IMG/VR virus record: IMGVR_UViG_3300015189_000002
Span: 2,452 to 66,451 of that record
Reading direction: 5' to 3' (one strand)
Length of the DNA: 64,000 nucleotides
DNA from: a virus
Below are positions 35,790 to 59,144 of this stretch, one piece after another (position 1 is the first letter of the stretch; each line of letters begins with the position of its first letter). Below the pieces are notes generated by a model. The model ran no database searches. It was not told the DNA's origin and saw only the letters and a list, made by a program, of their open reading frames with translations. A program made the translations under genes and the position numbers.

Positions 35790-37835
35790 ACACTCCAGTC
35801 AGGTACAGGGCATATAGGCACGCGGCGAGTTCTCACAATACCAGTCACACACTCCACAACGCAAGCATGACCGCTCCGCGTACCCCACATCAACCCACAT
35901 AACGAGTCTAAAAACCAGTACTAGTTTATCCCTCTTTAAAGCAAACCCTATCCCTCCGTATAACAAATCTTTTATACGAAAATCGGCTTGTTTACGCGGC
36001 CAAAACACAAGGGATTGCCCATTATCGCTACCCATAAAGTCTCTTTTGTGGGTCACTTGCAAACGTGTGGGTTGATGTGGGTTTGTGTTAAGCTGTGTGG
36101 GTTTGTATTGGAATCACTAAAGCACTATTGTTTATCCCATTTGATGCGTTATATACGACTCGTTTCTGTATGTGTGCGTGTGGGTGGGTGTGTGTTTGTA
36201 TTAAGTTGAGGGTATTTGAGCATTTTTATTATCGGCAACCGCTTAAGCAAACAAAAACACGCAAAAATAGGAAGACTGTAAAACACAAAGGAAGGGATAA
36301 TGTCCTGAATCCCCAAAGCCAGAACGGGATGCACATAATGTCAGTACCACACAAAACCACATACCAAACCCCACACAAACACACATACACACACATACTT
36401 ACTACTATATATATATGACATCTATATAAGCATCTAATAGGCATCTAATGTGTGAACTATGAGCATCTGCGGTCAGAGCTGGTCGTTTGTCATTCTTTCG
36501 TCATGGATGGGGGATACTATATGAGCTAGACTCTTTAAAATATACTGCTGTCAACCTAAAGATACTGCTTCTTCAGGTGAAGCAGAGTGCTTTCTTGATA
36601 ATTGGACGCGTTCCTAGACCAGTCTTGACCGTTCTTATAGGGTGATTTAGCATCTTAAAAAAGTTCATCTGTGCAACGAGTGCCAAGAGCGGGCGCGGCG
36701 CGGCGGGGGTTCGGATTTTTTTACCGGGGGCGTACTTGGGTTGAGGTCAAAGTCGTCGACTTGCCTACGCCAAATTGGGAAAGGTCAGACCAAAGTATGG
36801 TCCGATAGTGCGCGCTATCGGGCCACCTGCCACGACAGGTCTATGGTCTGACCATACCAAGGTGCCACCTTGCTAGGCGATCCGATGGCGACCTGCTACA
36901 AGCCTTAATACAAACCGCGTATAAGACTGTATAAGCAGTATCGTTATACAGTCTTAACGAGTCCGATTCCCCTCTGTTGTACCCTGTCATGTAGCAATAC
37001 AAGCCTCAATACAGTCACCATCCCGGCTTTCCCCGTTTGTATCAGCCATCGTATCAGACGATGCGATCACGAGCGATTAGGGTTATTAGATCACACTCGT
37101 ATGAGGTAATAGAACAGATGTACCTGTGGATAACCCAATTATCTCATATATGCTATATGGCCGTAAAGGCACCTAGGAGCCCGCCTAACGCTACAGACCC
37201 CCATACTGGCACTATCACCCAGCCTCGTTGCGTTCGTTCGTTAGGCGACATACCTGCAGGTCATACGCTTGCGTAACCAGCCGTTTGGCCTGTGGAAAAC
37301 CCGATCTCTAGACCTCTAGTAGAGGTCTAGGACTGCATACCCCTAGGGGTACAGGTCATACCCCTTAGGGGTATCGTTAGATCGTTAGCTCTGCTAACAA
37401 GAGCGATACGGGTATGGGTATGCAGATACCCATACGGGTAAGGGTATCTGGCTGGGAGCCATCCTAAGCGGCCTCGTGCCTGCTACAATACTTGGTACAA
37501 TCACCTATTTGACCTGCAAAGCAGTTTGTGAAACAAACTCGCAGCTGTGGAATATGTTGTTTCAGCTCACATAACAATCATGTAACGCTACGTGATTACC
37601 TGTTGACAGTTAGGTCAGCCTTGGTGTATCACGCGCAGGCGCGCCTGCACACGGGCACAGTGTTATGGCAAAACAATACTTGCTACAAACAGCGCGTCGC
37701 GTTGGCTGTGGGATGTGATCTACGTCACACTATGGCCTCCTAGGTTGACATGGCCTAGCGCTAGCCCCCATTCTGATCAAACGGCCAGCCGCTCGGCTAG
37801 CCGTTACAGCGCAACCGTTCTAGGAGACGATCATC
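35790..37835. other. About 2-kb non-coding divergent control region (candidate origin, genome end or promoter hub)
   Basis: No credible ORF. The left half is AT-rich with simple repeats; the right half has multiple palindromes. Genes diverge on both sides. Confidence 0.7.
37745..37774 (+). promoter_or_regulatory. Candidate early promoter
   Basis: TTGACA-18 nt-CATTCT upstream of the first rightward gene; another TTGACA lies near 37604. Confidence 0.4.
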
Positions 37836-38591
37836 ATGGCCTCATCCGTTACCTCCACCAGTACCTCCTTCGCCACCGTTACCCCTGCCACCGTCCCGGC
37901 GGGATGCGTCAACGTCGACGCAGTCAACCTGTACCGGGCGGCCGATGCCAAGGGCAAGGCCAACCTTCGGAGCGCGTTCACCAGCCAGATCAAGGCAACC
38001 ATCATGCAGGCCATGACTGGCGACGCGAGCGCCAACCAGCGGGGTCTCGACCTGATCGCCACCGAGGCTGCCTGCCTGACCAAGGCCCCGAAGGCCCCGA
38101 AGACGGTCAACGCTGGCCTCGTGATCGCCAATCGGATCGCAGCCCTTCGCATGGCTGCGGACCTGTTGGAGCGTGGCGAGTTCGCGCCGAAAGACCTGAC
38201 CCTGCCCGTCGGCTTCATCGGGCCAAACGCGTTCGACTTCGCCGAGGTCGACGCCACCGAGGTCTGGGAAGCCGCCTCGGCGATCGCCGGATCGAAGATC
38301 ACGAAGTCCAGCGAGCGTCGCGTCGTTCAGTCCGTCGTCGATCGTGCCTTCGCGGACCTGCCCGAGGGTGCCTTCCTGACCAGCGCCGAGATCGCGGAGG
38401 CCGGAAAGATCGAAGGCTACAAGTGCAGCGGTGGTGCCATCTCGGCGCGACTGGTCCCGATGACCTACACCGATGGCAAGGGGACCGTGTCCGGCAAGTC
38501 GTGCACCTTTACCGGGGTCAGGGTCCAGTCCGCCGGTACGGCTGGCCTCGGTGCGATCAAGGACAGCACCGTGACCGGCGACGAGGAGTAG
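37836..38591 (+). CDS. Hypothetical protein, paralog of 47140-48192
   Basis: 251 aa; CTAGGAG Shine-Dalgarno; strong GC3 bias. Confidence 0.8.
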   Translation: MASSVTSTSTSFATVTPATVPAGCVNVDAVNLYRAADAKGKANLRSAFTSQIKATIMQAMTGDASANQRGLDLIATEAACLTKAPKAPKTVNAGLVIANRIAALRMAADLLERGEFAPKDLTLPVGFIGPNAFDFAEVDATEVWEAASAIAGSKITKSSERRVVQSVVDRAFADLPEGAFLTSAEIAEAGKIEGYKCSGGAISARLVPMTYTDGKGTVSGKSCTFTGVRVQSAGTAGLGAIKDSTVTGDEE

Positions 38592-38599
38592 CCAACCCA

Positions 38600-38631
38600 G
38601 ACCCTAGCCAGCGATCACGCTGGCTAGGGTC
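38600..38631 (+). terminator. 14-bp perfect stem-loop after the gene
   Basis: GACCCTAGCCAGCG ATCA CGCTGGCTAGGGTC. Confidence 0.5.
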
Positions 38632-38755
38632 AGTTGGCCTTCCGGCCTCACCTCCGGCAGGCCAGTTGACCCTAGCCTTTGTCAAGTCGACGCCTCGCCT
38701 CGTTTGGTTGAGGTCGAAAAGTCCCCAAAAAGTCCGAAGCCCTAGGAGGCTCAAG

Positions 38756-39400
38756 ATGTCCACTTCCACCCTCCCCGTCGCGGCACCAGTCGCGCCTTAC
38801 GACATGATGGCTGGCCTGCTCGCTGCTATGACCAGCGCCGAGGCGGCTGAGGTCACCAAGCCGCGCATTAGGAAGCCATCCAGAAAAGCCGGGAAAGTTG
38901 CGCGCAAGGTCACCGAGCCCCGCGTGCTCGTGTTTGAGCCAGTGTTGCTGTCCGAGGACCTGCCCGAGCTACTGTTAAACGTAGCTCGCCTCGACCGAGC
39001 GCCTCGACCTCGTGGGGTCCGGTCACACTCGCTGACCCGCGAGATCAGCCCGCTAACCCTGCCGGAGATCAAGGTCCAGTCGGAGGTCCGGTGCCACGAG
39101 GCGCACGAAGTCCGGCACGTCTGCCTGACCGTCCTGGACGAGGACGGCACCTGCCCCGCCATCAAGCAGCACGATGCCTGCTGGAAGCACCTCCGGCCCA
39201 CCTTGCGCCAGATGGAGTCGGTGGTCCGGGTTCCAGTCGTTCACTCCCCCATTCGGTTCAACGTGGAAAAGCCCGAAACTTTTGCCCCGACCGCTCGCCT
39301 GATGACCGGCCTAACGACGACCAGCAAGTTGGATGACGAGTATGACCCCTGCAAGTCGCACCGATTCGCCGGGCAGTTCTGGTGCGAGTTGTGCATCTGA
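38756..39400 (+). CDS. Cys/His-containing hypothetical protein
   Basis: Start MSTSTLP behind CTAGGAGG. The tracked ORF's extension back to 37715 only shadows the previous gene. Confidence 0.65.
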   Translation: MSTSTLPVAAPVAPYDMMAGLLAAMTSAEAAEVTKPRIRKPSRKAGKVARKVTEPRVLVFEPVLLSEDLPELLLNVARLDRAPRPRGVRSHSLTREISPLTLPEIKVQSEVRCHEAHEVRHVCLTVLDEDGTCPAIKQHDACWKHLRPTLRQMESVVRVPVVHSPIRFNVEKPETFAPTARLMTGLTTTSKLDDEYDPCKSHRFAGQFWCELCI

Positions 39401-39514
39401 TCGCAGTGTGCATCTGATCGCATGAGGATGAGGCTGGGTAAGTGGGGACCTTCCCCAGCCGCGTCTGCACGCTATCAGGTTTCATCCGAGTTACACCGAT
39501 CCTAGGAGATCAAG

Positions 39515-39835
39515 ATGTTGAACAAGACCCAGCGCGATTCACTGGCAGCGTTTGTTGCAGATCGTGCGGAAAGTCGGAAAGAGTCGTTCCGGTACGGCAG
39601 CGGCGAAGTTCGCTTCCAGATGCTGGACGACGCCGAGCGTCAGATGCGGAACTACCTGCGGGCCGGGGACCTCGGCTCCAGTCAGATGGCCCGCATTGAG
39701 CTCGCCTTCATCGACTGGACAGTCGACTACCTGAAAGGCGTCACCTGCATTCACCCTGACTGCTTCACACAGGGAGTCGGAGTCGACGTGTGGTGCCAGT
39801 CCTGCAAGACCCTCGTGTCATGGCGGGAACTGTAA
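39515..39835 (+). CDS. Hypothetical protein
   Basis: 106 aa; GATCCTAGGAGATCAAG-ATG leader; C-terminal CxHxxC...CxxC. Confidence 0.75.
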   Translation: MLNKTQRDSLAAFVADRAESRKESFRYGSGEVRFQMLDDAERQMRNYLRAGDLGSSQMARIELAFIDWTVDYLKGVTCIHPDCFTQGVGVDVWCQSCKTLVSWREL

Positions 39836-39996
39836 TGGCTCCCCGCGACCACGACGAGTTCGACTGCGAGTGCCACGAGACGTGTGGCTGGTGTTGCGCC
39901 CCTTGGCCGATCGGCCAGTTATGGTCCATCACCGTAGCTGGCGAGCAGTCAGACGGTATCTGCCCACCGTGCCGGAAAGAGGCACGCAAGTCCTGA
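39835..39996 (+). CDS. Small Cys-rich protein
   Basis: MAPRDHDEFDCECHETCGWCC...CPPC; TAATG coupling. Confidence 0.6.
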   Translation: MAPRDHDEFDCECHETCGWCCAPWPIGQLWSITVAGEQSDGICPPCRKEARKS

Positions 39997-40091
39997 TCGG
40001 TTGACGGTCCTAACCAGTCCACAGTCCAGACTGGTTAGGTCCACCGGCGATCAGACCGGAAATCAGATGTAAACGATCCTAGGAGATCAAG

Positions 40092-40379
40092 ATGTCTGTT
40101 CAACTGCGCGTCACCCGCAACATGGCGAACAAGACCCTGGCTGCCATCCAGACCGCATTCAAGCCCTTCATCCAGGAGGGGTACGGCCCGAAGCTCATGG
40201 AGGACTGGGACGGTCACGACTTCTGCATCCTCTGGGAGGAGGGTTCCCCGTTCGAGTGGGTCCACATGATGTACGGTGGCCAGGACGAGTGGGGCAACAA
40301 GGTCCCACCGGCGAACATCCCAGCTACTGTCTGGACCGAGCCGGTCAACAGCTGTGTGTTGGCTCTCTACCGCAACTGA
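40092..40379 (+). CDS. Hypothetical protein
   Basis: 95 aa; conserved leader motif. Confidence 0.75.
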   Translation: MSVQLRVTRNMANKTLAAIQTAFKPFIQEGYGPKLMEDWDGHDFCILWEEGSPFEWVHMMYGGQDEWGNKVPPANIPATVWTEPVNSCVLALYRN

Positions 40380-40392
40380 CTAGGAGATCAAA

Positions 40393-40671
40393 GTGTGCAA
40401 CTCAGATCCGTCCATCCCCTGCTCGCAGGCTCATCACGTTCCGGTCATGCTGGAAGTGTGGTCAAACCGGCTCACCGAGGACGGTGGCAAGCCGTGGGGC
40501 CTCGGCAACGACCTGTTGATCGCAACGCGCACCGACCTCGACAGCGCGCTCGCCACGGTCGAGGAGACGTATGTCGAGGGTGGAGTCACCGCCATTGTCC
40601 GCGACTGGTTCACCGGCGAGGAGACATGGCTGACCGGCGCACACAAGCGCCGCCAGTCACGCAAGTCTTGA
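40393..40671 (+). CDS. Hypothetical protein
   Basis: 92 aa; CTAGGAGATCAAA-GTG leader. Confidence 0.7.
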   Translation: MCNSDPSIPCSQAHHVPVMLEVWSNRLTEDGGKPWGLGNDLLIATRTDLDSALATVEETYVEGGVTAIVRDWFTGEETWLTGAHKRRQSRKS

Positions 40672-40773
40672 CCTGATCGGATGAGTGGGTGGCTAGTCAG
40701 TAATCCAACACTGACTAGCCAGCCATCCGGCAATCAGTTCCAATCCAGTGTTACCGATCCTAGGAGATCTGCT

Positions 40774-41067
40774 ATGCCTCTTCACCACATTGTCACTTGG
40801 ACCGACGATGACATCAGAAAGACTCACGTCCGCGTCTTCCATAACGAGGTCGTGGCCGAGAACTACTACAGGGCTCAGATCAGGGATGACGAGCAGGCGA
40901 CACTCGTTAGCGTCGAGGTCGACTGCTTGGACGCGACCGAGTCGCTCGTCGGCATCTTCGAGAAGTCGTGGACTGTCTACGGCATCCCGGTCGAGAGCTG
41001 CGCCTATGAGGAGTTGGACGGCGGCGACCGTCTTCACCCCAACTGGTTCGCGCCGATCCGACACTGA
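40774..41067 (+). CDS. Hypothetical protein
   Basis: MPLHHIVTW...; conserved leader motif. Confidence 0.7.
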   Translation: MPLHHIVTWTDDDIRKTHVRVFHNEVVAENYYRAQIRDDEQATLVSVEVDCLDATESLVGIFEKSWTVYGIPVESCAYEELDGGDRLHPNWFAPIRH

Positions 41068-41108
41068 ACTTTCGACTTTTCCCCCACGTAGCGCCACGAT
41101 CTAAGTCG

Positions 41109-41120
41109 TGCTATAGTGGG
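41109..41120 (+). promoter_or_regulatory. Extended -10 promoter candidate TGnTATAGTGGG (second copy at 46903-46914)
   Basis: The same 12-nt pattern occurs in two intergenic regions, each upstream of a gene with strong codon bias. Confidence 0.45.
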
Positions 41121-41196
41121 ACTTCGGCCACACCGCTGGCCGAAACCAGTTGCCACCTTGTTATCCGCATCTCAACCGAGTAGAAAGAAGTCCATC

Positions 41197-41874
41197 ATGC
41201 TGAACTGCGTTCAGTGCAACAAGTCGTTCGACGCCCAGTACGCCCTCGACAATCACGTCGCGCAGACTCACACCACCGTTAAGTCCGCCGACGGTCACAA
41301 CCTGCATAACGGCTTGGCTGTGTGGGACTACGACCTGAAGCTCGGCACTGTCAACCTGAACAACGCGCACTTCGACGGAACCAGTCACGACCCCGAGCGC
41401 GTCTGGTTCGACGTTGAGCACCCGAAGATGCCGGGTGATCTCAGCAGCCACCCTCACTCGAGCCTGATGAACGGCGAGCGGGTCGTCCTTCGTCACCCGA
41501 CCACCCGCCAGTTGGCAGACGAGGCACTGAACGAGTTGAAGGCCAAGATGGACACCCGGCCCAATCAGCGCGACGAGCCCTACGCCTGCCCCGACTGCGG
41601 CGAGATGGTTTCTGAACGCATCGTCGAGATCGACATGGACCACTTCTGCGGCTGTATCGCCGAGATCTTCAGTGGTAGCCGAGAGGAGCAGGCCAGCTTC
41701 TGTGAGGCACCTGTCGTGCCCGGCACGAAGTATTGCGAGAACCACGTCGAGCCGGTCGAGGACGAGTTCGAGGAGCCGGCTGACGAGGATGAGGTGTCCG
41801 AGGTTCCCAAGTCGACCAAGCAGACCTTCACCAAGGTCGGTGCCGAGAACGCACTCAAAGGCCTGTTCAGCTGA
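41197..41874 (+). CDS. Multi-zinc-finger hypothetical protein
   Basis: N-terminal C2H2 (CVQC...HVAQTH), CPDC, CEAP...YCENH; acidic tail. Confidence 0.75.
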   Translation: MLNCVQCNKSFDAQYALDNHVAQTHTTVKSADGHNLHNGLAVWDYDLKLGTVNLNNAHFDGTSHDPERVWFDVEHPKMPGDLSSHPHSSLMNGERVVLRHPTTRQLADEALNELKAKMDTRPNQRDEPYACPDCGEMVSERIVEIDMDHFCGCIAEIFSGSREEQASFCEAPVVPGTKYCENHVEPVEDEFEEPADEDEVSEVPKSTKQTFTKVGAENALKGLFS

Positions 41875-42023
41875 TGTGGGTTCAGGTATGGGTCAACGGA
41901 TCGACGCGAGGCACTCGTAAGGTGTCGGGCATCGACTTCATCAGGCGGATCAACAACTACGCCATCAAGCACAAACTGGACATAGTCGTGACCGACTCAC
42001 ACACCGGCCAGATCATCTACTGA
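41874..42023 (+). CDS. Small hypothetical protein (49 aa)
   Basis: Not in the track: MWVQVWVNGSTRGTRKVSGIDFIRRINNYAIKHKLDIVVTDSHTGQIIY. TGATG-coupled, and its stop begins a repeat element. Confidence 0.6.
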   Translation: MWVQVWVNGSTRGTRKVSGIDFIRRINNYAIKHKLDIVVTDSHTGQIIY

Positions 42024-42118
42024 TCGCGAGATGGTGCCCACCAGTCAGTCCAGCACTGACTGGTGGGTAGCCACCGGCAATCAGTTCTAACCAGTGTTAC
42101 CGATCCTAGGAGATCAAG

Positions 42119-42661
42119 ATGACAAGCAAGATGGAACGTGTGCTCGACAGCCTCAACTGCTTCCAGATTCACTCGGTTGAGGTCTACCTGCACGGCGGTA
42201 CGCTGGTTGGTGGAACTGCCATCAATCCTGCCAACCAGCGACACTACTCACACACCTGGGTCAGGCGGTTCGGCAAGGTAATCGACCTCATGGGGTGGAC
42301 TGGCCACGAGCCGGGGGACGACATCTTCGGGCCGATGTATCAGCGCGACATTGCCATTGAGGTCATCGAGTGGCTCGAGTCCGAGAACCTGCTGAACGGC
42401 TGGCCCGAGCCTGTTCCTGCCCTCTGCGAGGGTGTCGACTACGACGAGGGTCCGCACTCAGGCTGTTCCGAGTTCGCACCGGCAGTCGAGATTCGCTGCC
42501 ACGACAAGGCGACCTTCGTCACCACGTTCCACGAGGTCGACTGGAGTCCCGACAGCGAAACGACCGAGAATACCTGCGACGCGCACCACGACTTGCTGAT
42601 CGAGTGGCTCAACGACGTGGGCCTCAAAGGGGTCGATGAGGTCATTCCCGCCACAGACTGA
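42119..42661 (+). CDS. Hypothetical protein
   Basis: 180 aa; conserved leader motif; Cys-containing C-terminal part. Confidence 0.75.
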   Translation: MTSKMERVLDSLNCFQIHSVEVYLHGGTLVGGTAINPANQRHYSHTWVRRFGKVIDLMGWTGHEPGDDIFGPMYQRDIAIEVIEWLESENLLNGWPEPVPALCEGVDYDEGPHSGCSEFAPAVEIRCHDKATFVTTFHEVDWSPDSETTENTCDAHHDLLIEWLNDVGLKGVDEVIPATD

Positions 42662-42856
42662 TTCATCAGTCGCACCGATAGAGATTTGGCCGGTCATAGG
42701 CTATCGTTAGGTTGGCACCTGTGATAGTCTATGACTCGGCCTGATCCCCGCTACGCCCCCTCAGTTAGTCCGGCGATTAAGTTGCTAACTGAAGGGGTCT
42801 ACCGGCGATCAGACCGGAAACAGAACACCTGACCCGACAGTCACTAGGAGAATGAT

Positions 42857-43039
42857 ATGTCTGAACGCGCACTGAATCTCGTTCCACCAGTTGCGATCAA
42901 GTTTGACACTCGCGCCGCCCATCTGAAGGCCCTTGCGAGGGCCAAGGTGTTCGCTCGCCGTCGCATGTTCGTGCTGACCATCTTCGCGGGGATCGTGGCA
43001 GGCTTCATCTTGCCCCTGCATCCGTTCATCAACATCTGA
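42857..43039 (+). CDS. Small membrane protein
   Basis: 60 aa with a C-terminal hydrophobic helix; CTAGGAG Shine-Dalgarno. Confidence 0.65.
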   Translation: MSERALNLVPPVAIKFDTRAAHLKALARAKVFARRRMFVLTIFAGIVAGFILPLHPFINI

Positions 43040-43440
43040 TGGGCACCGACGGACCTGCGGCTCGCCGCGCACAGGAGCGGTTCGGTCAGATACAGGCGAC
43101 ACTGATCGAAGTGTCCCATATTCTGGCAGCGCAGTCAGCACTGTCCCCACAGGAAGCCTTCATTCAGGTTACCAAGGGGCGTGACTGGTCAGACGAAGAG
43201 TTCAGGGCCGTCTCGATGACGGACTGGACGCCTGAACTGACGAAGGCTCGCAACGACATGGTCATGTGCCAGCGTTGTCGCGAGGTGTTCGCCAACGAAT
43301 ACGACTGTCTCTGGCACAAGTGCCAGATCGCCGAAGAACAGCGACAGGACGCCGAACGTCAAGAGCGTGTCTTGCGACAGGTCGAGCGTCGTCAGAGCAA
43401 CTTCGATGACTATGGCGGCATTGACGAAGACGACCACTGA
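43039..43440 (+). CDS. Hypothetical protein with C2H2-like motif
   Basis: CQRCREVF...HKC; coupled start. Confidence 0.65.
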   Translation: MGTDGPAARRAQERFGQIQATLIEVSHILAAQSALSPQEAFIQVTKGRDWSDEEFRAVSMTDWTPELTKARNDMVMCQRCREVFANEYDCLWHKCQIAEEQRQDAERQERVLRQVERRQSNFDDYGGIDEDDH

Positions 43441-43530
43441 TCGTGTGATGGTGCTAGCCAGTTGAATACTGACTGGCTAGTGCCACCGGCGATCAGACCG
43501 GACACAACTCCTATCTAGGAAGGTTTCACT

Positions 43531-43794
43531 ATGGCTGACCAGATCAACACCCAGACCGTCACCGTGCAGGTTATGCCTGCTGTGCCAGTCGTCAGGCCTC
43601 GAGTTCATCACGGCTTCTGGTACTGGACCTTGTTTGGCTGGTGGTGGACACTGCTGAAGATCGTGTGGTGGCTGCTCATGCTCGCCTTTCGGGTCACCCT
43701 GTGGCTGGTCTTTTTCCCGGCTGGCATGTGGGCGTCTTATGTTCACTTCCAGAACCAGCGCGACAAGCGCGCTCGTCGTCAGGCAGGTCTGTGA
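43531..43794 (+). CDS. Small Trp-rich membrane protein
   Basis: 87 aa; FWYWTLFGWWWTLLKIVWWLLM hydrophobic segment. Confidence 0.7.
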   Translation: MADQINTQTVTVQVMPAVPVVRPRVHHGFWYWTLFGWWWTLLKIVWWLLMLAFRVTLWLVFFPAGMWASYVHFQNQRDKRARRQAGL

Positions 43795-44225
43795 CTGATC
43801 CGACGATTCGCCTGCTTGCCGAGTTCAAGCGTCTGACTGGCATGGTCTATCAGATGCGTGAGTTCGAGTCCATCCAAAAGGTTAGCGTCGAAGGCAACAC
43901 TGCTAACCTCCTACTGACCACATACTCGCTCGAGACGGCCGCATCCAGAACGATTAAGAAGCGTCGTGGATTGCGGCTGATCACTTGGCAGCGTAACACC
44001 GCTCATGGTAACTGGTACGAGACTGGTCGTCTGACGATGTGGGACGAGGATTTCGCCGCTGAGACGATCCTGAAGTTCGGGGCTGTCAAGACGGCGACTG
44101 AGATCATCGACAAGCGCGAGTTCGAGAAGCAGTGCTACCGTCCCGGCACCTCTAAACAACCGCTTGACAACTACGAGCGCACGCTCGAGAGTTACACGAC
44201 AGCTGACATGGAAAGGTACTGGTAA
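43791..44225 (+). CDS. Hypothetical protein
   Basis: GTG start overlapping the upstream TGA. Confidence 0.6.
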   Translation: MTDPTIRLLAEFKRLTGMVYQMREFESIQKVSVEGNTANLLLTTYSLETAASRTIKKRRGLRLITWQRNTAHGNWYETGRLTMWDEDFAAETILKFGAVKTATEIIDKREFEKQCYRPGTSKQPLDNYERTLESYTTADMERYW

Positions 44226-44542
44226 TGCCAATCAACCGCGCAGAAGAACTGGCGCTCAATCTGATTCGGGAGCACTCGCCCATTGTTCATCACGAAGAGG
44301 ATGACGAGACTGTCGCCCTCAATGAGTTCGAAGAGCTGATGAGCTCATACGAGATGGCGGCTGACCTGCTCATCGAGATGGCCGGGTTCGACGGCGACGA
44401 CAGCGACAGTCTTGGTGTTGCGATGGGCGAGACTGTCAAGGATCTGATGGTCGTCCTATTCATGCGCTGCCCGCAACTTGCCGAGCGGATCAGTGGCACG
44501 GCAGATGACGATGTCGTGATCGAGGCTCTCACTCACTACTGA
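44225..44542 (+). CDS. Acidic hypothetical protein
   Basis: 105 aa; TAATG coupling. Confidence 0.65.
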   Translation: MPINRAEELALNLIREHSPIVHHEEDDETVALNEFEELMSSYEMAADLLIEMAGFDGDDSDSLGVAMGETVKDLMVVLFMRCPQLAERISGTADDDVVIEALTHY

Positions 44543-44628
44543 CCGAACAACGGCAGCGCCTGATGTGTCCTAGCACAACAGGCGCTGTCGTGGTTTTATC
44601 AGTCACACTCCACACAGGAAGGTTCCAC

Positions 44629-44910
44629 ATGAAAGATCTCGTCGTCAAGGGTCGCACTTTGAAGGAGGGTGACATCATCCTCGAGTCGTTCAAGCAGTCG
44701 CCACCGATCTCGTCACACATCGCACTCGGGCGCAAGTTCGTCTCGTTCGTCGCTGGTGACACAGACTATCGTGTCCCCCTCGACCATGAGCTCTGGGTGC
44801 GTCGCAAGAATCCCGGCGTCTGTGGCGTCTGTGGTCAGACATTCGAGGATCGCAACCAAGAGGACGTCTGCCCCAAGTGTTGGGTCGAACTCGAAGACGC
44901 GCCTGAATGA
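44629..44910 (+). CDS. Hypothetical protein with C-terminal zinc ribbon
   Basis: CGVC...CPKC; AGGAAGG Shine-Dalgarno. Confidence 0.65.
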   Translation: MKDLVVKGRTLKEGDIILESFKQSPPISSHIALGRKFVSFVAGDTDYRVPLDHELWVRRKNPGVCGVCGQTFEDRNQEDVCPKCWVELEDAPE

Positions 44911-45009
44911 ACGCCGGTATCTGCTTCAGGTGCAACTGCCCAGCAACACGTCGCACTGTTCACAACATCTGCCTGTCCTGTATCAACGAAGAAAGAATGA
45001 GGTCCAATC

Positions 45010-45627
45010 ATGCGTAAAAAGATTGCCATCAGCGAGTTGAGGCGAGACATGATTCTCGTGCTCGCCAATGACAAGACTTCCAAGGTTCTGAACATCTATG
45101 TCCACGGCGGCGACCGCGTACAGATTCAGACCGAAGAGTCGTCGTCGACCACCACTGAGCCTGAGGTCTGGATCGAGGTGCCTGACGCGCCTGTTCCCGA
45201 CGAAAACACGGTCAACAGGTATCGCCAGTCGGATCATCAACTTCGAGTCGAGATGGTGCAGGAGTTGAAGATCAACCTGCGTCAGACGATGAAGGACAGT
45301 GATATCAATGGAGCCTATCAGGTCATGGTGACGATGGATGCCTGCCTTGCCATCGAAGATGTCGATGGCGTTGTCGAAGAGATCAAGGTCTACGAGAGGA
45401 CTGACTACATCATTCGGGCGGGTGACGAGTCAATGGTCATCTCAGTGCCCGAGGGAGATCACACGATGATTCAGATCTTCGACAGCAGCATGAAGGCACT
45501 CGTCGGCATTGACCTCATCGACACCGAGGATCAGCCCGACACTCTCGAGATGGGCTACTGGCCTGACGGCGAAGAGTGGAAGGTCGTTCTGTCGGTCGTT
45601 CCTGCTGACCTGCCCGACGCACCCTGA
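45010..45627 (+). CDS. Acidic hypothetical protein
   Basis: 205 aa; GAGG Shine-Dalgarno. Confidence 0.65.
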   Translation: MRKKIAISELRRDMILVLANDKTSKVLNIYVHGGDRVQIQTEESSSTTTEPEVWIEVPDAPVPDENTVNRYRQSDHQLRVEMVQELKINLRQTMKDSDINGAYQVMVTMDACLAIEDVDGVVEEIKVYERTDYIIRAGDESMVISVPEGDHTMIQIFDSSMKALVGIDLIDTEDQPDTLEMGYWPDGEEWKVVLSVVPADLPDAP

Positions 45628-45827
45628 TGGCTACGGTAGTGTTCTGCTTTGTCAGTGATGATCTGGATATCTACATCAGTCCAGAAGATCTACGCAAGGC
45701 AGCCGACACCCTTGAGAAGGGCGAGATGTTCCGCGCCGATGCAGATGATGTCGAGGGCAGCTGTGCAGCCACGATCTCGTTCACCAACCGATCTCAGTGG
45801 AACGATGAAGAGGAGAATGAAGAGTAA
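45627..45827 (+). CDS. Small acidic hypothetical protein
   Basis: 66 aa, coupled; followed by the hairpin GGCTCCCCG...CGGGGAGCC. Confidence 0.55.
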   Translation: MATVVFCFVSDDLDIYISPEDLRKAADTLEKGEMFRADADDVEGSCAATISFTNRSQWNDEEENEE

Positions 45828-45909
45828 CAAGCAGTAAGGGCTCCCCGCCGACTGTGAATCGACGGGGAGCCTGTCAAACCTTCAGTCCATTACAGCGAAA
45901 GGTTTAACA

Positions 45910-46218
45910 ATGGCGATCATATCATCACCTGTCAACCGTTTCAATGGGTCGGTCAGTTCTCCGTCTGATTCCAAGAAAAGTCACCTCGGCCTTAAGCTGA
46001 AGGTCGGAAGCTACTTCGTCACCCTGTTGTTCGGAGTTGGCATCTCAAACGTGACTCTGGCGAACCACCCCGAGTGGCAGCCTTGCTGTGCCACTGCAAC
46101 CAAGGCTGAGATTGCCAAGAACCTCAGTGACGCAGCAGTCGCCACCAAGCTCGAAGGTGCAGCAGCGGCAGCCCGCCTCATTGAGCTGAAGACCGAAGCA
46201 GCGAAGGTCAACAAGTGA
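45910..46218 (+). CDS. Small membrane-anchored protein
   Basis: 102 aa with one hydrophobic segment. Confidence 0.55.
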   Translation: MAIISSPVNRFNGSVSSPSDSKKSHLGLKLKVGSYFVTLLFGVGISNVTLANHPEWQPCCATATKAEIAKNLSDAAVATKLEGAAAAARLIELKTEAAKVNK

Positions 46219-46838
46219 AGCTCAATGGTCCCATGATTATCGGGACTGTCATCGGAGTTGGCCTAGCAATACCTTACTCGAAAGGTGTTCTAGAGGGCAT
46301 CCAGTGTGGCGTGCCCAGCAACAACAAGCCTGCCATGTGTGACTCTTCGAGCGCCGCCAGTGCGCTCACCAAGGCTGCTGATCGAGTTTCCAACAGTGGC
46401 AACAACTCTGCTATCCCGAGACTGAAGACTGGTCCTAACAAGTGGCCTGTTGGGACGCTCAAGTATTACATGGTCAAAACTGGCTTCAAGGGACAAAAGC
46501 TCAACGACATGGCTGCCATCCTTGTCGGCGAGAGTGGTATCGGCAAAGGCAAGATCAACGCTATGGCTCACAACTGCAACACCAAGACCTTGGATGACAG
46601 TTACGGGCTTGGTCAGATCAATCTGCTGGGTGACCTGATTGTCCGACTCAACACGTACAATCTCAAGAACGCCGAGGCTTTGTACGAGCCGGTTCGGAAC
46701 TTGCAGATCACCTACGAGTTGGCCCAGTCGTCCACTGGCTACAAGCACTGGGGGTCTTTCAACCAGAAGACCTACCTCAGGTTCTATGGACTCAATCCGG
46801 TGGTGGTGAGGGTTCGCAACACTCACTGTCCAAACTGA
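46215..46838 (+). CDS. Secreted/anchored lytic transglycosylase (lysozyme-like, SLT)
   Basis: N-terminal signal/TM segment; AILVGESG (catalytic Glu), SYGLGQIN, LYEPVRNL and GYKHW. Confidence 0.8.
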   Translation: MKLNGPMIIGTVIGVGLAIPYSKGVLEGIQCGVPSNNKPAMCDSSSAASALTKAADRVSNSGNNSAIPRLKTGPNKWPVGTLKYYMVKTGFKGQKLNDMAAILVGESGIGKGKINAMAHNCNTKTLDDSYGLGQINLLGDLIVRLNTYNLKNAEALYEPVRNLQITYELAQSSTGYKHWGSFNQKTYLRFYGLNPVVVRVRNTHCPN

Positions 46839-47139
46839 TCTGGTGATAACTTACACCTGACATTTTGACTGGCGTTTCGATTAGGTAGCGAGGTACCAGT
46901 CATGTTATAGTGGGGTTATCGCCACCGCTTTAGTCTTTCCGTCGTATCTCGTGGCGTGCGCGTTGCCAGCCAGCTCACATCGAGCTGGCTGGCAACCGCG
47001 CCGATAGTGCTCGTTAGGGAACTAAGCAATCAAGGGCTTGACACCGTGCAATCCAGATGGGTACGTTGTACTCGTATGGATCGCAGGATGGCAATTCCGT
47101 CATCTAGCAAGAGCCGACCCGACACCGGAGGTTTTTATC

Positions 47140-48192
47140 ATGGCTCGCAGGAACCGTAACACCGAGTCCAGTCCCACCACCGAGAACGACATCAACACCG
47201 AAGAGGAGTCCACCGTGAGCACTTACACCGAGACGGACGAGCCCACCGAGGCTCCCGCCTACGAGTCCACCGAAGAGGCCGCACCCGAGTCCGAGTCCAG
47301 CGACGAGGCTGCGTCCGAGTCCGGCGACGAGGCTGCCGTCACCGTCGAGCCCACCGAGTCGGAGCCTGTCGCCCCGAAGCCGGAGGCTGACCTGACCGAG
47401 TTCAAGGCCCGCGTCGCAGAGGCCGTCGAGGGCAAGGACTCCTCCACCGGCGAGGTCGCCCCTGGCCTGTTTGAGCCTGTCTCGGCTGCCTACCGCGCCA
47501 TCGACGGGGTGAAGGGCAAGAACGCCGCCAAGGCGTTCGTCTCCGATCAGATGCGCGACGCCATGAACTCGACCGATATCCAGTCGGCTCGGGCCTACAT
47601 GAACCTCGGCGATCACCTGACCGCTGCGACGCCGCACGCTGGTTCGGCGCGAGTCCCCACCGACCCGACCGAGGCGTTCATCCACCTCATCGTCGGCCTC
47701 CGTCTGGCACAGGCGCTCGCCGCCGAGAACGTGCCCGAAGGTGTGGCCGAGGACTGGTCCGGCAAGGCCGACGCCCTGCTCACCTCGTCCGAGGGCCCGG
47801 CCCGCGAGTACCTCGCGTGGACCAAGTCCGAAGACGAGAACAAGGGTGACGAGCCCATCGTCGAGTCGGTCGTGAAGGCGGCTGTCAAGCTGTCGGTCGG
47901 CAAGTCGGCCAAGGTCGGTTCCGCCGCTCGCTCCACCTCGACGCCCTTCACCGGGACGCGTCGAGACATCGGCAAGCACATCGCCGCCGCCTTCGAGGGT
48001 ATCGAGTCCGGCACCTTCCTGACCGTCGCTCAGATTCGCAAGCACCACAGCGACGAGTACGGCGACGAGCTGCCGAGCGCCGGTGCCGTCAGTGCCCGTC
48101 TGTTCCCGCGGAACAACGGAAAGTGCACGATCGAGGGCATCACCCCCGGCCAGCTCGACGGCAAGGGCAACAAAGGGGCCTACAAGGACTAG
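47140..48192 (+). CDS. Hypothetical protein with acidic disordered N-terminus, paralog of 37836-38591
   Basis: GGAGG Shine-Dalgarno; extreme GC3 bias suggests high expression. Confidence 0.8.
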   Translation: MARRNRNTESSPTTENDINTEEESTVSTYTETDEPTEAPAYESTEEAAPESESSDEAASESGDEAAVTVEPTESEPVAPKPEADLTEFKARVAEAVEGKDSSTGEVAPGLFEPVSAAYRAIDGVKGKNAAKAFVSDQMRDAMNSTDIQSARAYMNLGDHLTAATPHAGSARVPTDPTEAFIHLIVGLRLAQALAAENVPEGVAEDWSGKADALLTSSEGPAREYLAWTKSEDENKGDEPIVESVVKAAVKLSVGKSAKVGSAARSTSTPFTGTRRDIGKHIAAAFEGIESGTFLTVAQIRKHHSDEYGDELPSAGAVSARLFPRNNGKCTIEGITPGQLDGKGNKGAYKD

Positions 48193-48356
48193 GCGCCCCC
48201 TGAATCACCGGCTGGACCGGGCTGGCTAGGGAGTCCTAGCGAACTAATCAGTCCGGTCCAGTCGGACACCGAACTGCCTGTCACTTAGGTCATGAGTGAC
48301 AGGCAGTTCTGCGTCCGACTGGGCGAATACCCTGATTCACAACAGGAGGTAACGTA

Positions 48357-49692: not shown

Positions 49693-49862
49693 GCCATCCT
49701 CTACACGTCGGGGTCCACCGCGACCTAATGGCATAAAGAGGACCGTGGTACCCCGCGCACGGTCGGCCACAGCCCCGCTAGCGCACCGTCCCTTGGAATC
49801 CATCAAGGGTTAGGATGGTCCAGTACGACTCGTGATTCACAACCCGCAAGGAGGTTTTACCA

Positions 49863-50084
49863 ATGAGTGACATGAGTGTCATTCCAGTGACAAACGACGC
49901 GACAAAGCTGCCACCGTGCAAGTGGTATGTCTCTGTCGATCAGCCCGAGTGTGGCAAGCCAGCACCCTTCAAGTTGAAGGTGAAAGGCAAGGTCACGCAA
50001 GCCGTGGTCGATGTCTGCGAAGACCACAAGGCGCTCCATGACAGAGAATTTGCGAGGCTTCGTACCTCTGGCCGCGCATCCTGA
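49863..50084 (+). CDS. Small Cys/His protein
   Basis: 73 aa; AGGAGG Shine-Dalgarno. Confidence 0.6.
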   Translation: MSDMSVIPVTNDATKLPPCKWYVSVDQPECGKPAPFKLKVKGKVTQAVVDVCEDHKALHDREFARLRTSGRAS

Positions 50085-50135
50085 TGCAGCTTGACCCGAC
50101 AATCCCTCTACCACCTTGAAAGGTGAGGTTTTACT

Positions 50136-51701
50136 ATGGCTGAAATGAAGTCGGCGTCGTCGACTGATCTTAACAAGTCTTGCAACAACTGTCCATCGTT
50201 TTGCCCTCCCTCGGAAAACGTCACCAAGTTCAAAAAGTCGCTTGGTACAAGTCTGTGTGGAAGGTATGGCATCGTTCTCGGCAAGCCCGGCCTGCCATCC
50301 AAGCAACTGGATCGACTGGCTCGGTACAACGCAAACAGGTGCCCCTCTTACGGCGACCCGATGCCGCCAGTTCCTGTCGAGAAGCGCTTTCTCGTCACGA
50401 TGCCTGACATGGAAGCTCGTGTCAGTACCGAGGGTTCTGATGGTGCGGCAGCGTGCAGCAGTTGTGCGATGTGCAAGAACTTCGTCAACGAGCAGACGGT
50501 GGCACAAGAGCTCGGCTGGACAGCCGGCCTGTGCGCGGCCAAAGGCAAGTTGATCCTGTCCACCGAACAGGTCTACGAAGCTCGCGACTGCGAGTACCGT
50601 TTCTACGGGCGAGTTCGCAACAGCACGATGGGGATGCCTCTTCTGCCCGAGTACGAAGACGCGTTCAACCTTAACGTCGACCCGATCAGAGCGTACTTCA
50701 AAAACAAGGGTCACTTGATCGAGCCGGGAGACTACCCGACTGATCGTGAAGTCCAGCCCGACGAGGCGAAGGGTGGTATCAAGGCTTGGAGGCGCGTTCT
50801 CGATCCTGACGGTTCGGGCAACGAGGTTCACCTTCCGATCTACGATGACATGTTCTTCGACGAAGACGAGCGTTCCAAGATTCCTCGAACAGGGGACGAC
50901 GAGCACCCCGAGTCTTACATCGACCACTTCGGCGGTACCTACTTGGCCGCGGTTGCTTGGACTGAACTGGACGAGACTCCTGCGGTTTGGGGCGAGGCCG
51001 GCTGTGGAAAGACCGAACTGTTCCGCTACCTTGCGTGGCTCATGCAGATTCCGTTTGAGCGCATCAGTATCACGGCTCAGACCGAGCTGGATGACCTCGC
51101 TGGGAAGACGCACTACAGTCAGGACGTTGGGACGTACTTCACTGAAGGTCGCCTGCCGAAGGCTTGGCAGAAGCCTTGCGTCATCGTCATCGACGAACCG
51201 AACGTGGGCTCGCCTGAGGTCTGGCAGTTTCTTCGGCCCCTGACTGACAACAGCAAGCAGTTGGTGCTGGACATGGATCGAGGTCAGCGCATCCCTCGTC
51301 ATGCCGACTGTTACATGGGTATGGCGATGAACCCAGCTTGGGACCCAAAGAACGTCGGAGCAGCTGTGATAGCAGATGCAGACGCTAGTCGTCTGTTCCA
51401 CGTCTACATCGAGCAGCCCCCGGCAACACTGGAGCGTGAGATCATCACGAACAGAGTTCACCTAGATGGGTGGGACATGACCAGCGATCAGCTGGACATG
51501 CTCATGCACGTCGCGGAGGAAGTGCGCGCCTTGTGCAAGGACGGCAGTCTCGGTATCACCTGGGGTATCCGTCCACAGATCAAGGTGGCGCGTGCCCTTC
51601 GATGGTTCGACACAGTCACCTCGTACAGACGTGCGGTTGGCGACTACCTTGAGCCAGAGCAGTCCGAAGCACTACTCGCAGTTGTCCGAGCACACGCCTA
51701 G
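50136..51701 (+). CDS. MoxR/CbbQ-type AAA+ ATPase with Cys-rich N-terminal domain
   Basis: Walker A GEAGCGKT, Walker B VIDEPN, AMNPAW, DADASRL; multiple CxxC motifs at the N-terminus. Confidence 0.88.
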   Translation: MAEMKSASSTDLNKSCNNCPSFCPPSENVTKFKKSLGTSLCGRYGIVLGKPGLPSKQLDRLARYNANRCPSYGDPMPPVPVEKRFLVTMPDMEARVSTEGSDGAAACSSCAMCKNFVNEQTVAQELGWTAGLCAAKGKLILSTEQVYEARDCEYRFYGRVRNSTMGMPLLPEYEDAFNLNVDPIRAYFKNKGHLIEPGDYPTDREVQPDEAKGGIKAWRRVLDPDGSGNEVHLPIYDDMFFDEDERSKIPRTGDDEHPESYIDHFGGTYLAAVAWTELDETPAVWGEAGCGKTELFRYLAWLMQIPFERISITAQTELDDLAGKTHYSQDVGTYFTEGRLPKAWQKPCVIVIDEPNVGSPEVWQFLRPLTDNSKQLVLDMDRGQRIPRHADCYMGMAMNPAWDPKNVGAAVIADADASRLFHVYIEQPPATLEREIITNRVHLDGWDMTSDQLDMLMHVAEEVRALCKDGSLGITWGIRPQIKVARALRWFDTVTSYRRAVGDYLEPEQSEALLAVVRAHA

Positions 51702-58558: not shown

Positions 58559-59144
58559 GGGCCAATACCGTCCCGGTTCTCGCAATCCAAAGTTTCGATC
58601 CGATGGCAAGATGTCAGAGAATCGGATCGCCTGGATGCGTACTGTACTTGGTACGTCAGTCATCATGTTCTATCCTCCTGGAGTGAATGACGAAGATGAT
58701 GATGAGTATGAGATCGCAAACAACAAAGAGCTTGGCCCGACAGTCAGACTCGTATTGCCTCGACCCAATGGTCGAGCTGTAACCATGAACCTTACTGCGA
58801 TGACAGGTCCAGAGTTACAGATGATGCGAGAGTTCTACGACCTGCTATTTGATCTAGCAGAGCCCGTTGTACGGGAGAGAGACAAGGTGGCGCAAGATGC
58901 CTTCAACTCAGGTGATGACGCTTTCGCAAGAATCTATCGACAGGTTCCGCAACTGGTTATCCGTTCGGGGCAAGTCCCCGAAGACTACCAAAGCATACGG
59001 GACCGACTTGGGGATCTTGCTAACCGAGTTGGAAGAGACGGAGATCTCGAAGGAAGACTTCGCGGAGACGGCCATGAACTGGCTCCAAGCGAACCGGAAG
59101 AGAATCGCTCCAAAGACGACGACACGCCGGTTGACAAGCCTTAA
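58551..59144 (+). CDS. Hypothetical protein whose 3' part overlaps the recombinase gene
   Basis: 197 aa, GTG start, open through about 230 nt of the recombinase N-terminus. Confidence 0.6.
   Translation: MAKGQYRPGSRNPKFRSDGKMSENRIAWMRTVLGTSVIMFYPPGVNDEDDDEYEIANNKELGPTVRLVLPRPNGRAVTMNLTAMTGPELQMMREFYDLLFDLAEPVVRERDKVAQDAFNSGDDAFARIYRQVPQLVIRSGQVPEDYQSIRDRLGDLANRVGRDGDLEGRLRGDGHELAPSEPEENRSKDDDTPVDKP

Follow-up and report, generated by a model that had tools for sequence, protein, structure and literature searches.

A covarying hairpin module between early genes of an uncultured actinophage-like virus, a candidate mRNA processing or stability element

The rightward early operon of a metagenomic virus, examined here in a 64-kb window (positions 2,452 to 66,451 of the 71.4-kb IMG/VR virus record IMGVR_UViG_3300015189_000002; GC 53.6%), carries six copies of a hairpin family, each followed by a spacer and a conserved Shine–Dalgarno/start motif. 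With copies in two related phages as well, the family is a clean structured element that had not been catalogued before, and its covariation across the three genomes is real. On balance we lean towards explaining it as a transcribed intercistronic hairpin for mRNA processing or stability, coupled to the start motif behind it. Repeated, clade-specific start-associated motifs and intergenic stem-loop cassettes are already known in phages (PMC3203893, PMC7302621, PMC2839356). All coordinates below are those of the window.

A family of six hairpins at stop-to-start junctions

Seven hairpins between accessory genes had been pointed out in an earlier sequence-only reading of this DNA. All seven were recovered at the coordinates reported there, with folds that far outdo dinucleotide shuffles (z −3.9 to −9.0). 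Six of them, beginning at 39414, 39993, 40673, 42020, 42741 and 43437, form one family and share the same orientation; we refer to them as e1 to e6, with e2, e3, e4 and e6 as core copies and e1 and e5 as diverged ones. A covariance model built from the four best window copies (R1) scored the core copies at 68–83 bits, e5 at 25 and e1 at 20. A second model (R2), built only from the five copies of a related genome, L316, found all six window copies on the + strand at 26–64 bits, together with two copies in another genome, L364, a recovery that independently confirms the family and its membership. Neither model matched the seventh element.

The family holds a fixed register with the surrounding genes. 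At e2 (39993–40054, + strand; R1 78.5 and R2 56.2 bits), e4 (42020–42084, +; 82.7 and 58.2 bits) and e6 (43437–43496, +; 76.3 and 64.4 bits), the TGA of the left end is the stop codon of the upstream gene (39994–39996 for gene 39835–39996, 42021–42023 for gene 41874–42023 and 43438–43440 for gene 43039–43440, respectively). The remaining core copy, e3 (40673–40737, +), found by both R1 and R2, begins 2 nt past a stop, and e1 (39414–39478, +; R1 19.6 and R2 28.9 bits; fold z −3.9) starts 14 nt after one. The left end of e1 is tandemly duplicated over 16 nt, with TGTGCATCTGATCGCA at both 39390–39405 and 39407–39422, and the first of these copies contains the stop codon of gene 38756–39400. The other diverged copy, e5 (42741–42812, +; R1 25.4 and R2 26.2 bits), is not behind a gene; as it stands about 12 nt downstream of the promoter-like TGTGATAGT (42720–42728), it would lie near the 5' end of that predicted transcript. 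Downstream, e6 precedes gene 43531–43794, whose homologue in L316 is likewise preceded by a family copy.

The sequence-only reading had described the left-end TGA as the upstream stop in four copies (at 39994, 42021, 43438 and 44540), with two more hairpins starting just past a stop, and these positions hold. The fourth of these stops, that of gene 44225–44542, lies in the seventh hairpin (44539–44602, +), whose place in the array did not survive: besides failing to match R1 and R2, it has no sequence similarity to the other six. Because its GC-rich 13-bp stem stands directly before TGGTTTTAT, it looks like an ordinary hairpin of the intrinsic-terminator kind.

Genes of the operon are joined in three ways: by ATGA/GTGA overlaps; by gaps of 85–115 nt, each with one strong hairpin; and by gaps of 130–200 nt with promoter-like TGnTATAGTGGG or TGTGATAGT embedded in inverted repeats. 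The family hairpins fill the 85–115-nt gaps, between gene groups otherwise joined by overlaps. In an extended alignment, homology between copies starts sharply at CTGATC and ends at or just past the start codon of the next gene; the repeated unit is the whole stop-to-start interval, comprising the hairpin, a spacer of one of two subtypes and the Shine–Dalgarno/start motif. The right-end sequence CCGGCRATCAG has 5 exact sites, only at 40.0–43.5 kb, and 10 sites in all against 2.5 expected once those with one mismatch are included. Trivial coding repeats aside, the end motif and the downstream start motif are the only 12-mers repeated at least three times in the genome. The end words, when taken alone, are weak evidence, with CTGATC and GATCAG about threefold over-represented genome-wide.

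Each family copy is followed by a spacer of 20–45 nt, which often opens with a yyGGAAA box, and then by the start motif, in its extended form GATyCTAGGAGAyc...ATG (fullest form GATCCTAGGAGATCAAGATG), and the ATG. The two right-flank subtypes of the sequence-only reading, ACCGGA and TTCyAA, are real, and a T-run follows no family copy. The start-motif sequence GATCCTAGGAGATC has 4 exact sites against 0.44 expected, and all nine CTAGGAG sites of the 71-kb genome lie within 37.2–42.8 kb and are exclusive to the early operon. On the + strand, the motif stands at 39498–39517 as GATCCTAGGAGATCAAGATG (gene 39515–39835), at 40756–40776 (gene 40774–41067) and at 42102–42121 (gene 42119–42661). At 40056–40094 (+), a second, partial right end, CCGGAAATCAG, precedes the spacer and start motif of gene 40092–40379, and its yyGGAAA(TCAG) box is conserved behind copies in L316 and L364 too. 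A start motif without a hairpin (TGA followed by CTAGGAGATCAAAGTG; 40380–40395, +) joins genes 40092–40379 and 40393–40671, and the orthologous junction holds a family hairpin in both L316 and L364.

Beyond these shared features the copies are far apart, with exact copy-to-copy identities of only 8–25 nt and whole-module identities of 40–70%; a test for mosaic structure on four copies gave p = 0.36, with too few informative sites. Against Rfam, no match was obtained at gathering scores, and below them only chance-level ones (miRNA-precursor hairpins and one model of an internal ribosome entry site).

Related copies in two further phage genomes

The two further genomes were reached through homologues of the flanking genes 47140–48192 and 50136–51701 (a MoxR ATPase). 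L316 is a 26.6-kb contig (ENA ERZ27314309), and L362/L364 derive from a 79.5-kb one (ENA ERZ27280939), to which L363, from another sample, is near-identical. Both are metagenomic phage genomes of window-like GC (51–53%). Compared with the window, the ATPase of L362 is 71% identical, and the L316 gene is 72% identical at the nucleotide level. L316 holds five family copies at 25–43 bits, and L364 two clear copies and one diverged. These copies lie in the same early operon in the same orientation, the left-end TGA is the upstream stop in four of them, and all are followed by the yyGGAAA box and GATyCTAGGAGA...ATG. The presence of the same family, with compensating changes, in two related phages shows that the element is real and conserved. 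The covariance model and scan of relatives that the sequence-only reading had proposed as a check thus recovered the family, covariation included, in L316 and L362/L364.

In ten related IMG/VR genomes (large terminase subunit, TerL, about 50–73% identical), R1 and R2 found no family copies, and in the five of them compared in full, nothing encoded in the 29–47 kb region of the window has a homologous protein. No close relative of the virus itself came from megablast and tblastn searches of phage records or from IMG/VR scans seeded with proteins, TerL being at most 54% identical in cultured phages and at most 73% in IMG/VR contigs; exact-protein look-ups did not find a second contig. DNA-pattern scans of viral, metagenome and genome collections returned single chance matches only (at most 26 bits with the model) and no contig with more than one copy, and so gave no evidence of a host family of repetitive extragenic palindromic (REP) elements.

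TerL is about 54% identical to that of the Rhodococcus phages Perlina and ReqiDocB7 and of Gordonia phages of the Gmala1/GMA3 type, and the portal and capsid proteins of the window match the Mu-portal and capsid-E families. Given this identity and these matches, we regard the virus as a distant, uncultured actinophage-like siphovirus; its host is presumably actinobacterial. The module, in turn, appears to be a conserved element of a small clade of such siphoviruses.

Structure conservation and covariation

The elements are 60–72 nt long, with helices of 21–28 predicted pairs interrupted by an internal loop or bulge. They share the base CTGAT/ATCAG and a conserved asymmetric internal loop, nnTGAy, together with a GCR bulge; above these stands an apical stem of 9–16 bp, variable in sequence but always paired, and the spacing between arms ranges from 4 to 16 nt among copies. 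Among the four core copies, 96% of stem cells pair and 5 of the 13 apical pairs show compensatory changes, a level reached by none of 500 shuffles. When all 13 copies from the three genomes are aligned, the paired share of stem cells is 95.9%, compared with 70.4 ± 2.0% (at most 78.1%) for 1000 shuffles, compensatory types occur at 12 of 19 pairs and the basal 5 bp are invariant in 13/13 copies, figures in which pairing is somewhat inflated, the alignments having been fitted to the model. The claim that inner stems differ between copies while staying paired is thereby borne out. Compensation reaches even the base (CTGAC...GTCAG) in the diverged L364 copy, whose upstream gene is the one that a normal copy follows in L316.

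Conservation is unevenly spread along the hairpin. Invariant positions make up 16 of 17 in the basal part against 9 of 22 in the apical part (Fisher p = 0.0007), and the unpaired nnTGAy and GCR bases are likewise significantly more conserved than apical positions. Covariation, together with the invariance of the base and of the unpaired bases, indicates selection on the hairpin, the base of which is probably recognized in a sequence-specific manner. Of the end structure originally described—inverted CTGAT/ATCAG with a 3-nt GCR bulge on the right arm—the ends are conserved, whereas the bulge is only one of several near-equal folds; in the GCG copies, the minimum-free-energy fold pairs CTGATCG with CGATCAG. 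We set aside an interpretation of the bulge as a kink-turn, since it is followed by A-U Watson–Crick pairs and not by tandem G.A.

Gene order and module boundaries

Eight gene families (A, 3, 4, 7, 12, 14, 16 and 20) are common to the three arrays, in the order A-3-4-7 in the window as against A-4-7-3 in L316 and L364. The sequence-only reading had asked whether gene content and order change precisely at the elements; some of the changes do lie at them. The interval between genes 4 and 7 contains different genes in each genome, with family copies at its bounds, and a family copy stands before gene 12 in the window as it does in L316, while the upstream neighbor of that gene differs. Other changes involve no element: translational coupling joins gene 3 with gene 2 in the window and with gene 7 in L316 and L364, and three genes are inserted in L316 between x1 and x2, which are coupled in L364. 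The adjacencies common to L316 and L364 (7-3; x1-x2, broken in L316; and x2-x3-x4) hold no family copy. Some breakpoints thus fall at elements and others do not, in numbers too small for an enrichment test.

Nor do genes and elements stay together. For homologues of genes 3, 4, 7 and 12, the downstream elements differ or are absent among the three genomes; behind gene 4, for example, L316 has a normal copy, L364 has one that is rewritten, and the window has only TGA directly joined to CTAGGAG. At two orthologous junctions (after gene 4 in L316 and L364, and before gene 12 in the window and L316), elements persist with completely rewritten stems.

Module boundaries carry traces of past exchange. 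Compared with its L316 and L364 homologues, gene 3 (39835–39996) is truncated by e2 by three to four codons (ARKS* versus AKKGVMR*). The 10 nt upstream of e3 (CACGCAAGTC, 40658–40667) match the end of gene 3 exactly: these final 10 nt of the gene were copied along with e3 and now stand behind the unrelated gene 40393–40671. At the other end, gene 4 shares in the module homology over five codons (MSVQL), with which a different L316 gene also begins. Such junctions are imprecise, reaching 10–13 nt into the upstream gene or five codons into the downstream one, and are footprints of duplication and short-homology exchange rather than of precise site-specific recombination. As a separate observation on gene 3, whose product is Cys-rich (CxCHxxCGWCC...CPxC), its homologue of 54 aa in L362 (3345–3509, equal to L364 12562–12726) is missing from the gene table of that record.

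Proposed role in early messages

On the explanation that we prefer, the element would be transcribed within polycistronic early mRNAs, between units of one to three translationally coupled genes. Its helix of about two turns, broken by an internal loop, would serve as a double-stranded RNA (dsRNA) processing signal, a block to 3' exonucleases or both, of the RNase III type as in T7 early mRNA, and the hairpin would delimit and stabilize the upstream message segment. The start motif would make translation begin uniformly in each next unit, whether released or insulated; being common to several units, it might permit their joint regulation and could offer a shared target for the shut-off of early genes. 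Conservation of the unpaired bases suggests that a protein, of the host or the phage, recognizes the element by its sequence. In a secondary role, copies of the module would offer identities of 15–25 nt for duplication and short-homology reshuffling of neighboring genes.

Processing or stability of mRNA was one of two roles offered by the sequence-only reading, and it fits what was found: co-oriented elements inside an operon, placed at stops with a start motif behind them, without promoter hexamers, covarying, and with helices of RNase III-like length. The early mRNA of T7 is organized by RNase III hairpins between genes. Like the RNase III sites of T7 and T3 early mRNA (R1.1), the present elements are related hairpins between early cistrons or cistron pairs of a polycistronic transcript, with about two helical turns broken by an internal loop, near an upstream stop and with the next ribosome-binding site behind. 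Unlike them, they are known from sequence alone, bear no sequence relation to the T7/T3 sites, and show a strict basal conservation that the comparison leaves unexplained. Bacterial RNase III substrates have about two helical turns and an internal loop that confines cleavage to a single strand, so that a protective 3' hairpin remains, and the family helices match these stated features of reactivity (PMC1540722).

This explanation starts from direct observations on family membership, the conservation of structure, where copies lie with respect to genes, the lack of promoter hexamers and which genomes carry the family; its RNase III step, inferred by analogy, is its weakest link. Several points weigh against it. 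A search of the phage found no encoded RNase III, and RNase III specificity in the presumed actinobacterial host is undefined. A purely structural RNase III signal needs no strict conservation of basal sequence, and palindromes can stay paired through DNA-level mechanisms too. Nor does the folding strand help: the energies of + and − strand folds are similar (three copies fold better on +, four on −) and the stem cells of the 13 copies hold 9 G.T against 6 A.C, values that do not separate + strand RNA from folded DNA of either strand and that remove the earlier argument from G-T wobbles in favor of the + strand. To these come the somewhat inflated pairing of the fitted alignments and the 40380–40395 junction, where the window lost the hairpin without visible consequence.

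The family is informative in that it combines covariation across three divergent genomes, an invariant base with invariant unpaired bases, and a fixed register with stops and start motif. It is a well-defined candidate for a new cis-regulatory RNA family that could enter Rfam, and would make a tractable system for how phages partition and stabilize polycistronic early messages in Actinobacteria, where the targets of RNase III and RNase J/E are poorly known. It joins other clade-specific repeat systems of actinobacteriophages, such as stoperators, the start-associated sequence (SAS) and extended SAS (ESAS), and the inverted repeats of Clusters O and EG. The three-genome comparison further shows that the modules travel by imprecise duplication and short-homology exchange and not as site-specific cassettes, which bears on the turnover of ORFan-rich early regions.

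Alternative explanations

The modules might instead be chiefly portable homology for gene shuffling, with any role in expression secondary, as in the promoter–early stem-loop (PeSL) elements of T4-type phages; we consider this unlikely, though it deserves the most attention among the alternatives. In its favor, unrelated ORFan genes stand between homologous modules, the array region lacks protein homologues in the five fully compared genomes, the order of shared genes differs (3,4,7 in the window versus 4,7,3) with differing, element-flanked contents of the 4–7 interval, and footprints of exchange are visible in the 16-nt duplication at the left end of e1, the gene 3 tail copied with e3 and the homology running five codons into gene 4. 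PeSLs provide a precedent (PMC2839356, PMC4122927): they too are repeated composite intergenic modules with an upstream stem-loop and a downstream expression signal, flanking small ORFan genes in hyperplastic regions whose gene content varies among relatives. However, exact identities of 8–25 nt at 40–70% module identity are poorly suited to recombination, the retention of basal sequence and pairing across genomes greatly exceeds the needs of mere homology, and several rearrangements or indels fall at element-free junctions (7-3 versus 2-3 and 7-8; the three genes between x1 and x2). PeSLs also have a strong sigma-70 promoter, a proven terminator and experimentally shown mini-circles, whereas here the downstream signal is a translation start rather than a promoter, the hairpins lack T-runs and inter-copy identities are short.

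It is improbable that the hairpins, lacking a U-tract, act as terminators or attenuators of transcription, or as factor-dependent pause sites, and grade expression along the operon. Their stable GC-rich stems directly after stop codons would suit such a role, and two neighbors outside the family, 38622–38677 and 44539–44602, have T-runs and look like true terminators. No T-run follows any family copy, however, the flanks being ACCGGA or TTCyAA, and a simple terminator scan picks up none of them. Six terminators within 4 kb of one operon would silence its distal genes unless antitermination intervened, e5 lies just downstream of a promoter-like site and not behind a gene, and the conserved unpaired bases would be left unexplained.

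Spread of the copies through intergenic regions as selfish mobile palindromes, akin to REP elements or miniature inverted-repeat transposable elements (MITEs), is very improbable. A multi-copy intergenic palindrome with conserved ends and unrelated genes between copies invites this comparison, and intergenic palindromes within operons are also typical of REP elements and bacterial interspersed mosaic elements (BIMEs; PMC3733652, PMC12306157), which are thought to stabilize upstream mRNA and to affect termination and translation near stop codons (PMC3733652, PMC12306157). REPs, however, are 20–40 bp long, occur in hundreds of chromosomal copies, carry a GTAG/CGTC tag and are associated with RAYT transposases, none of which applies here: the phage lacks a RAYT/Y1 transposase, the tags of the REP superfamilies (PMC3733652) are missing and target-site duplications are not consistent. 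The pattern scans of collections gave no multi-copy contig and no locus above 26 bits; the copies are old and diverged (40–70% identity), retained at orthologous positions, and always tied to the start motif and to one orientation.

The other role that the sequence-only reading had offered, recombination at structure-recognized sites, fares no better. That the elements are attC-like or folded CTX attP-like sites, used on folded single-stranded DNA by the phage tyrosine recombinase, is very improbable. In form they do resemble attC sites, with conserved ends in inverted orientation, an internal loop and a 3-nt bulge, bases that are unpaired or extrahelical, a paired but variable middle, stop codons within, co-orientation and a length within the 57–140 nt of integron attC sites. 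The substrate of attC recombination is the folded bottom strand, with strand choice set by the extrahelical bases; fold energies and G.T/A.C counts here do not indicate a folding strand. A tyrosine recombinase is indeed encoded at 58867–59727. This only candidate belongs with Xer-like proteins (131 bits to XerC); its 286 aa fall short of an integron integrase, and it reaches the integron-integrase model TIGR02249 with its C-terminus only, at 69 bits against a cut-off of 265. It lies 14 kb from the array and has homologues (40–53%) in four related genomes, while the elements occur in none of ten relatives, and in the L362 genome the Phage_integrase gene, as called, spans only 170 aa. Nor do the elements contain the R''/R' consensus (RYYYAAC/GTTRRRY); the ends read CTGATCG and CCGGCRATCAG in all copies of the three genomes. 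Unlike integrons, the region shows no R-boxes, IntI, attI-like site, Pc promoter or integrase beside the array, homologous genes are not linked to a given downstream element, inheritance does not keep a gene and its site together, and junctions are imprecise. The broader proposal, in which the hairpins are folded single-stranded sites of a Xer-like recombinase of the clade and the region an integron-like array that captures and reorders anti-host genes, is scarcely more credible.

Duplex DNA operator/promoter elements like the ESAS of Cluster K are just as improbable as attC-like sites. ESAS is now read as a promoter plus inverted repeat (PMC11373665), and the early modules of two more distant relatives, G003 and G004, place an inverted repeat over a SigA-like promoter ahead of a SAS-like motif. 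Between −30 and +45, however, e1–e4 and e6 lack any TANNNT −10-like hexamer, and the one at e5 goes with a poor −35. The distance between arms ranges from 4 to 16 nt, stems covary without a fixed half-site and the left end overlaps coding stop codons. A generic promoter/terminator scan likewise found nothing within the family elements; promoter-like TGnTATAGTGGG sites lie elsewhere. The absence of a promoter hexamer from five of the six copies sets the family apart from ESAS, PeSL and the G003/G004 modules.

Similarities to SAS and ESAS, described from Cluster K mycobacteriophages and Cluster EF Microbacterium phages (PMC3203893, PMC7302621, PMC11373665, PMC12699233), are nonetheless close. 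Both systems are clade-specific and have an over-conserved motif over the ribosome-binding site, 3–9 nt upstream of the starts of a subset of early or accessory genes, as is also found here; about half of the genes with the motif have an inverted repeat immediately upstream, in an unusually long gap. The SAS motif (GGGATAGGAGCCC) has no sequence similarity to GATCCTAGGAGATC, and megablast of phage records gave no match. ESAS has arms of 15–17 bp with conserved sequence, as against a covarying hairpin of 21–28 bp starting at the upstream stop, and includes the SigA-like promoter whose −10 hexamer is wanting in five of the six copies here. Its authors found little support for an mRNA hairpin, and ESAS is now described as a SigA-like promoter plus operator (PMC11373665).

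In G003 (C1:7600–10300, minus strand), −35/−10 promoters of the TTGCAT-17-TAGGCT type with a hairpin in the spacer, followed by CCCGCTAGACGGAGGTAA and ATG, occur three times. In G004 (C1:68100–69250), GTGACA-17-TAGACT promoters lie inside inverted repeats three times, and ACCTGGGACGGT occurs five times. We take these early-region repeats to be true ESAS/SAS-like promoter modules.

Genomic setting of the array

Structural genes run leftward at 0–25 kb, and a palindrome-rich non-coding region occupies 36.4–37.8 kb. The long rightward operon begins at 37.8 kb; this early operon (37836–48192, +) consists of units of one to three translationally coupled small genes, separated by hairpin modules or promoter-like gaps. 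About 19 small genes follow gene 38756–39400, with Pfam and PHROG matches wanting in nearly all of them, and Atlas look-ups of three array proteins gave weak leads only (Zn-finger/Lar-like and YunG-like). Gene 42119–42661 is an ORFan, with no homologue among 5.8 billion proteins. The 225-aa product of 41197–41874 has an N-terminal C2H2 zinc finger, with weak matches that include the dsRNA-binding zf-C2H2_jaz and DUF7374 and an Atlas lead to small phage Zn-ribbon or 'Lar-like' proteins; homologues are present in both other arrays (L316 and L364).

GC reaches 58–63% in the array (38000–44000) against the genome mean of 53.6%, and GC at third codon positions (GC3) is uniformly 0.70–0.85; for both, the array genes have the highest values of the genome, the capsid region excepted. 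This suggests resident, well-expressed genes in a high-GC host, and the uniformly high GC3 argues against a mixed set of recent imports.

The operon is bracketed by two distant paralogues, 37836–38591 and 47140–48192, with C-termini 36% identical over 86 aa and a double hairpin 3' of each gene (38600–38677 and 48208–48322). The family of 47140–48192 is large, with 240 metagenomic-phage proteins at E ≤ 1e-10, none of them named by Pfam. Upstream of the array, the sequence-only reading had recorded a 561-aa gene; this ORF (37715–39400) is spurious and resolves into genes 37836–38591 and 38756–39400, each with a CTAGGAG-type ribosome-binding site. Between them lie overlapping, mutually exclusive hairpins (38600–38631 and 38622–38677), with TTTGT after the second, a layout that resembles an attenuator/terminator switch.

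Each long gap of the operon contains one promoter-like extended −10 site: TGCTATAGTGGG at 41109–41120, TGTGATAGTC at 42720–42729 and TGTTATAGTGGG at 46903–46914. Each of the first two lies within an inverted repeat, and the third stands immediately behind one; the equivalent gap of L364 holds TATGGTATAATGGGA.

Word usage is biased across the genome, with GATC at 427 occurrences and CTAG at 106, each against 276 expected, and with CTGATC, GATCAG, CCAGTC and GACTGG each about 2.5–3.3-fold over-represented. The stem motif AGCCAG / CCAGTC is common to the non-family hairpins at 38600, 46962 and 52270 and to the apical stems of the family. Beyond the operon, a 534-aa minus-strand ORF (49857–51461) fully shadows the plus-strand MoxR AAA+ gene (50136–51701); homology in L316 and L362 and a Pfam AAA_5 match identify the plus-strand frame as the real gene.

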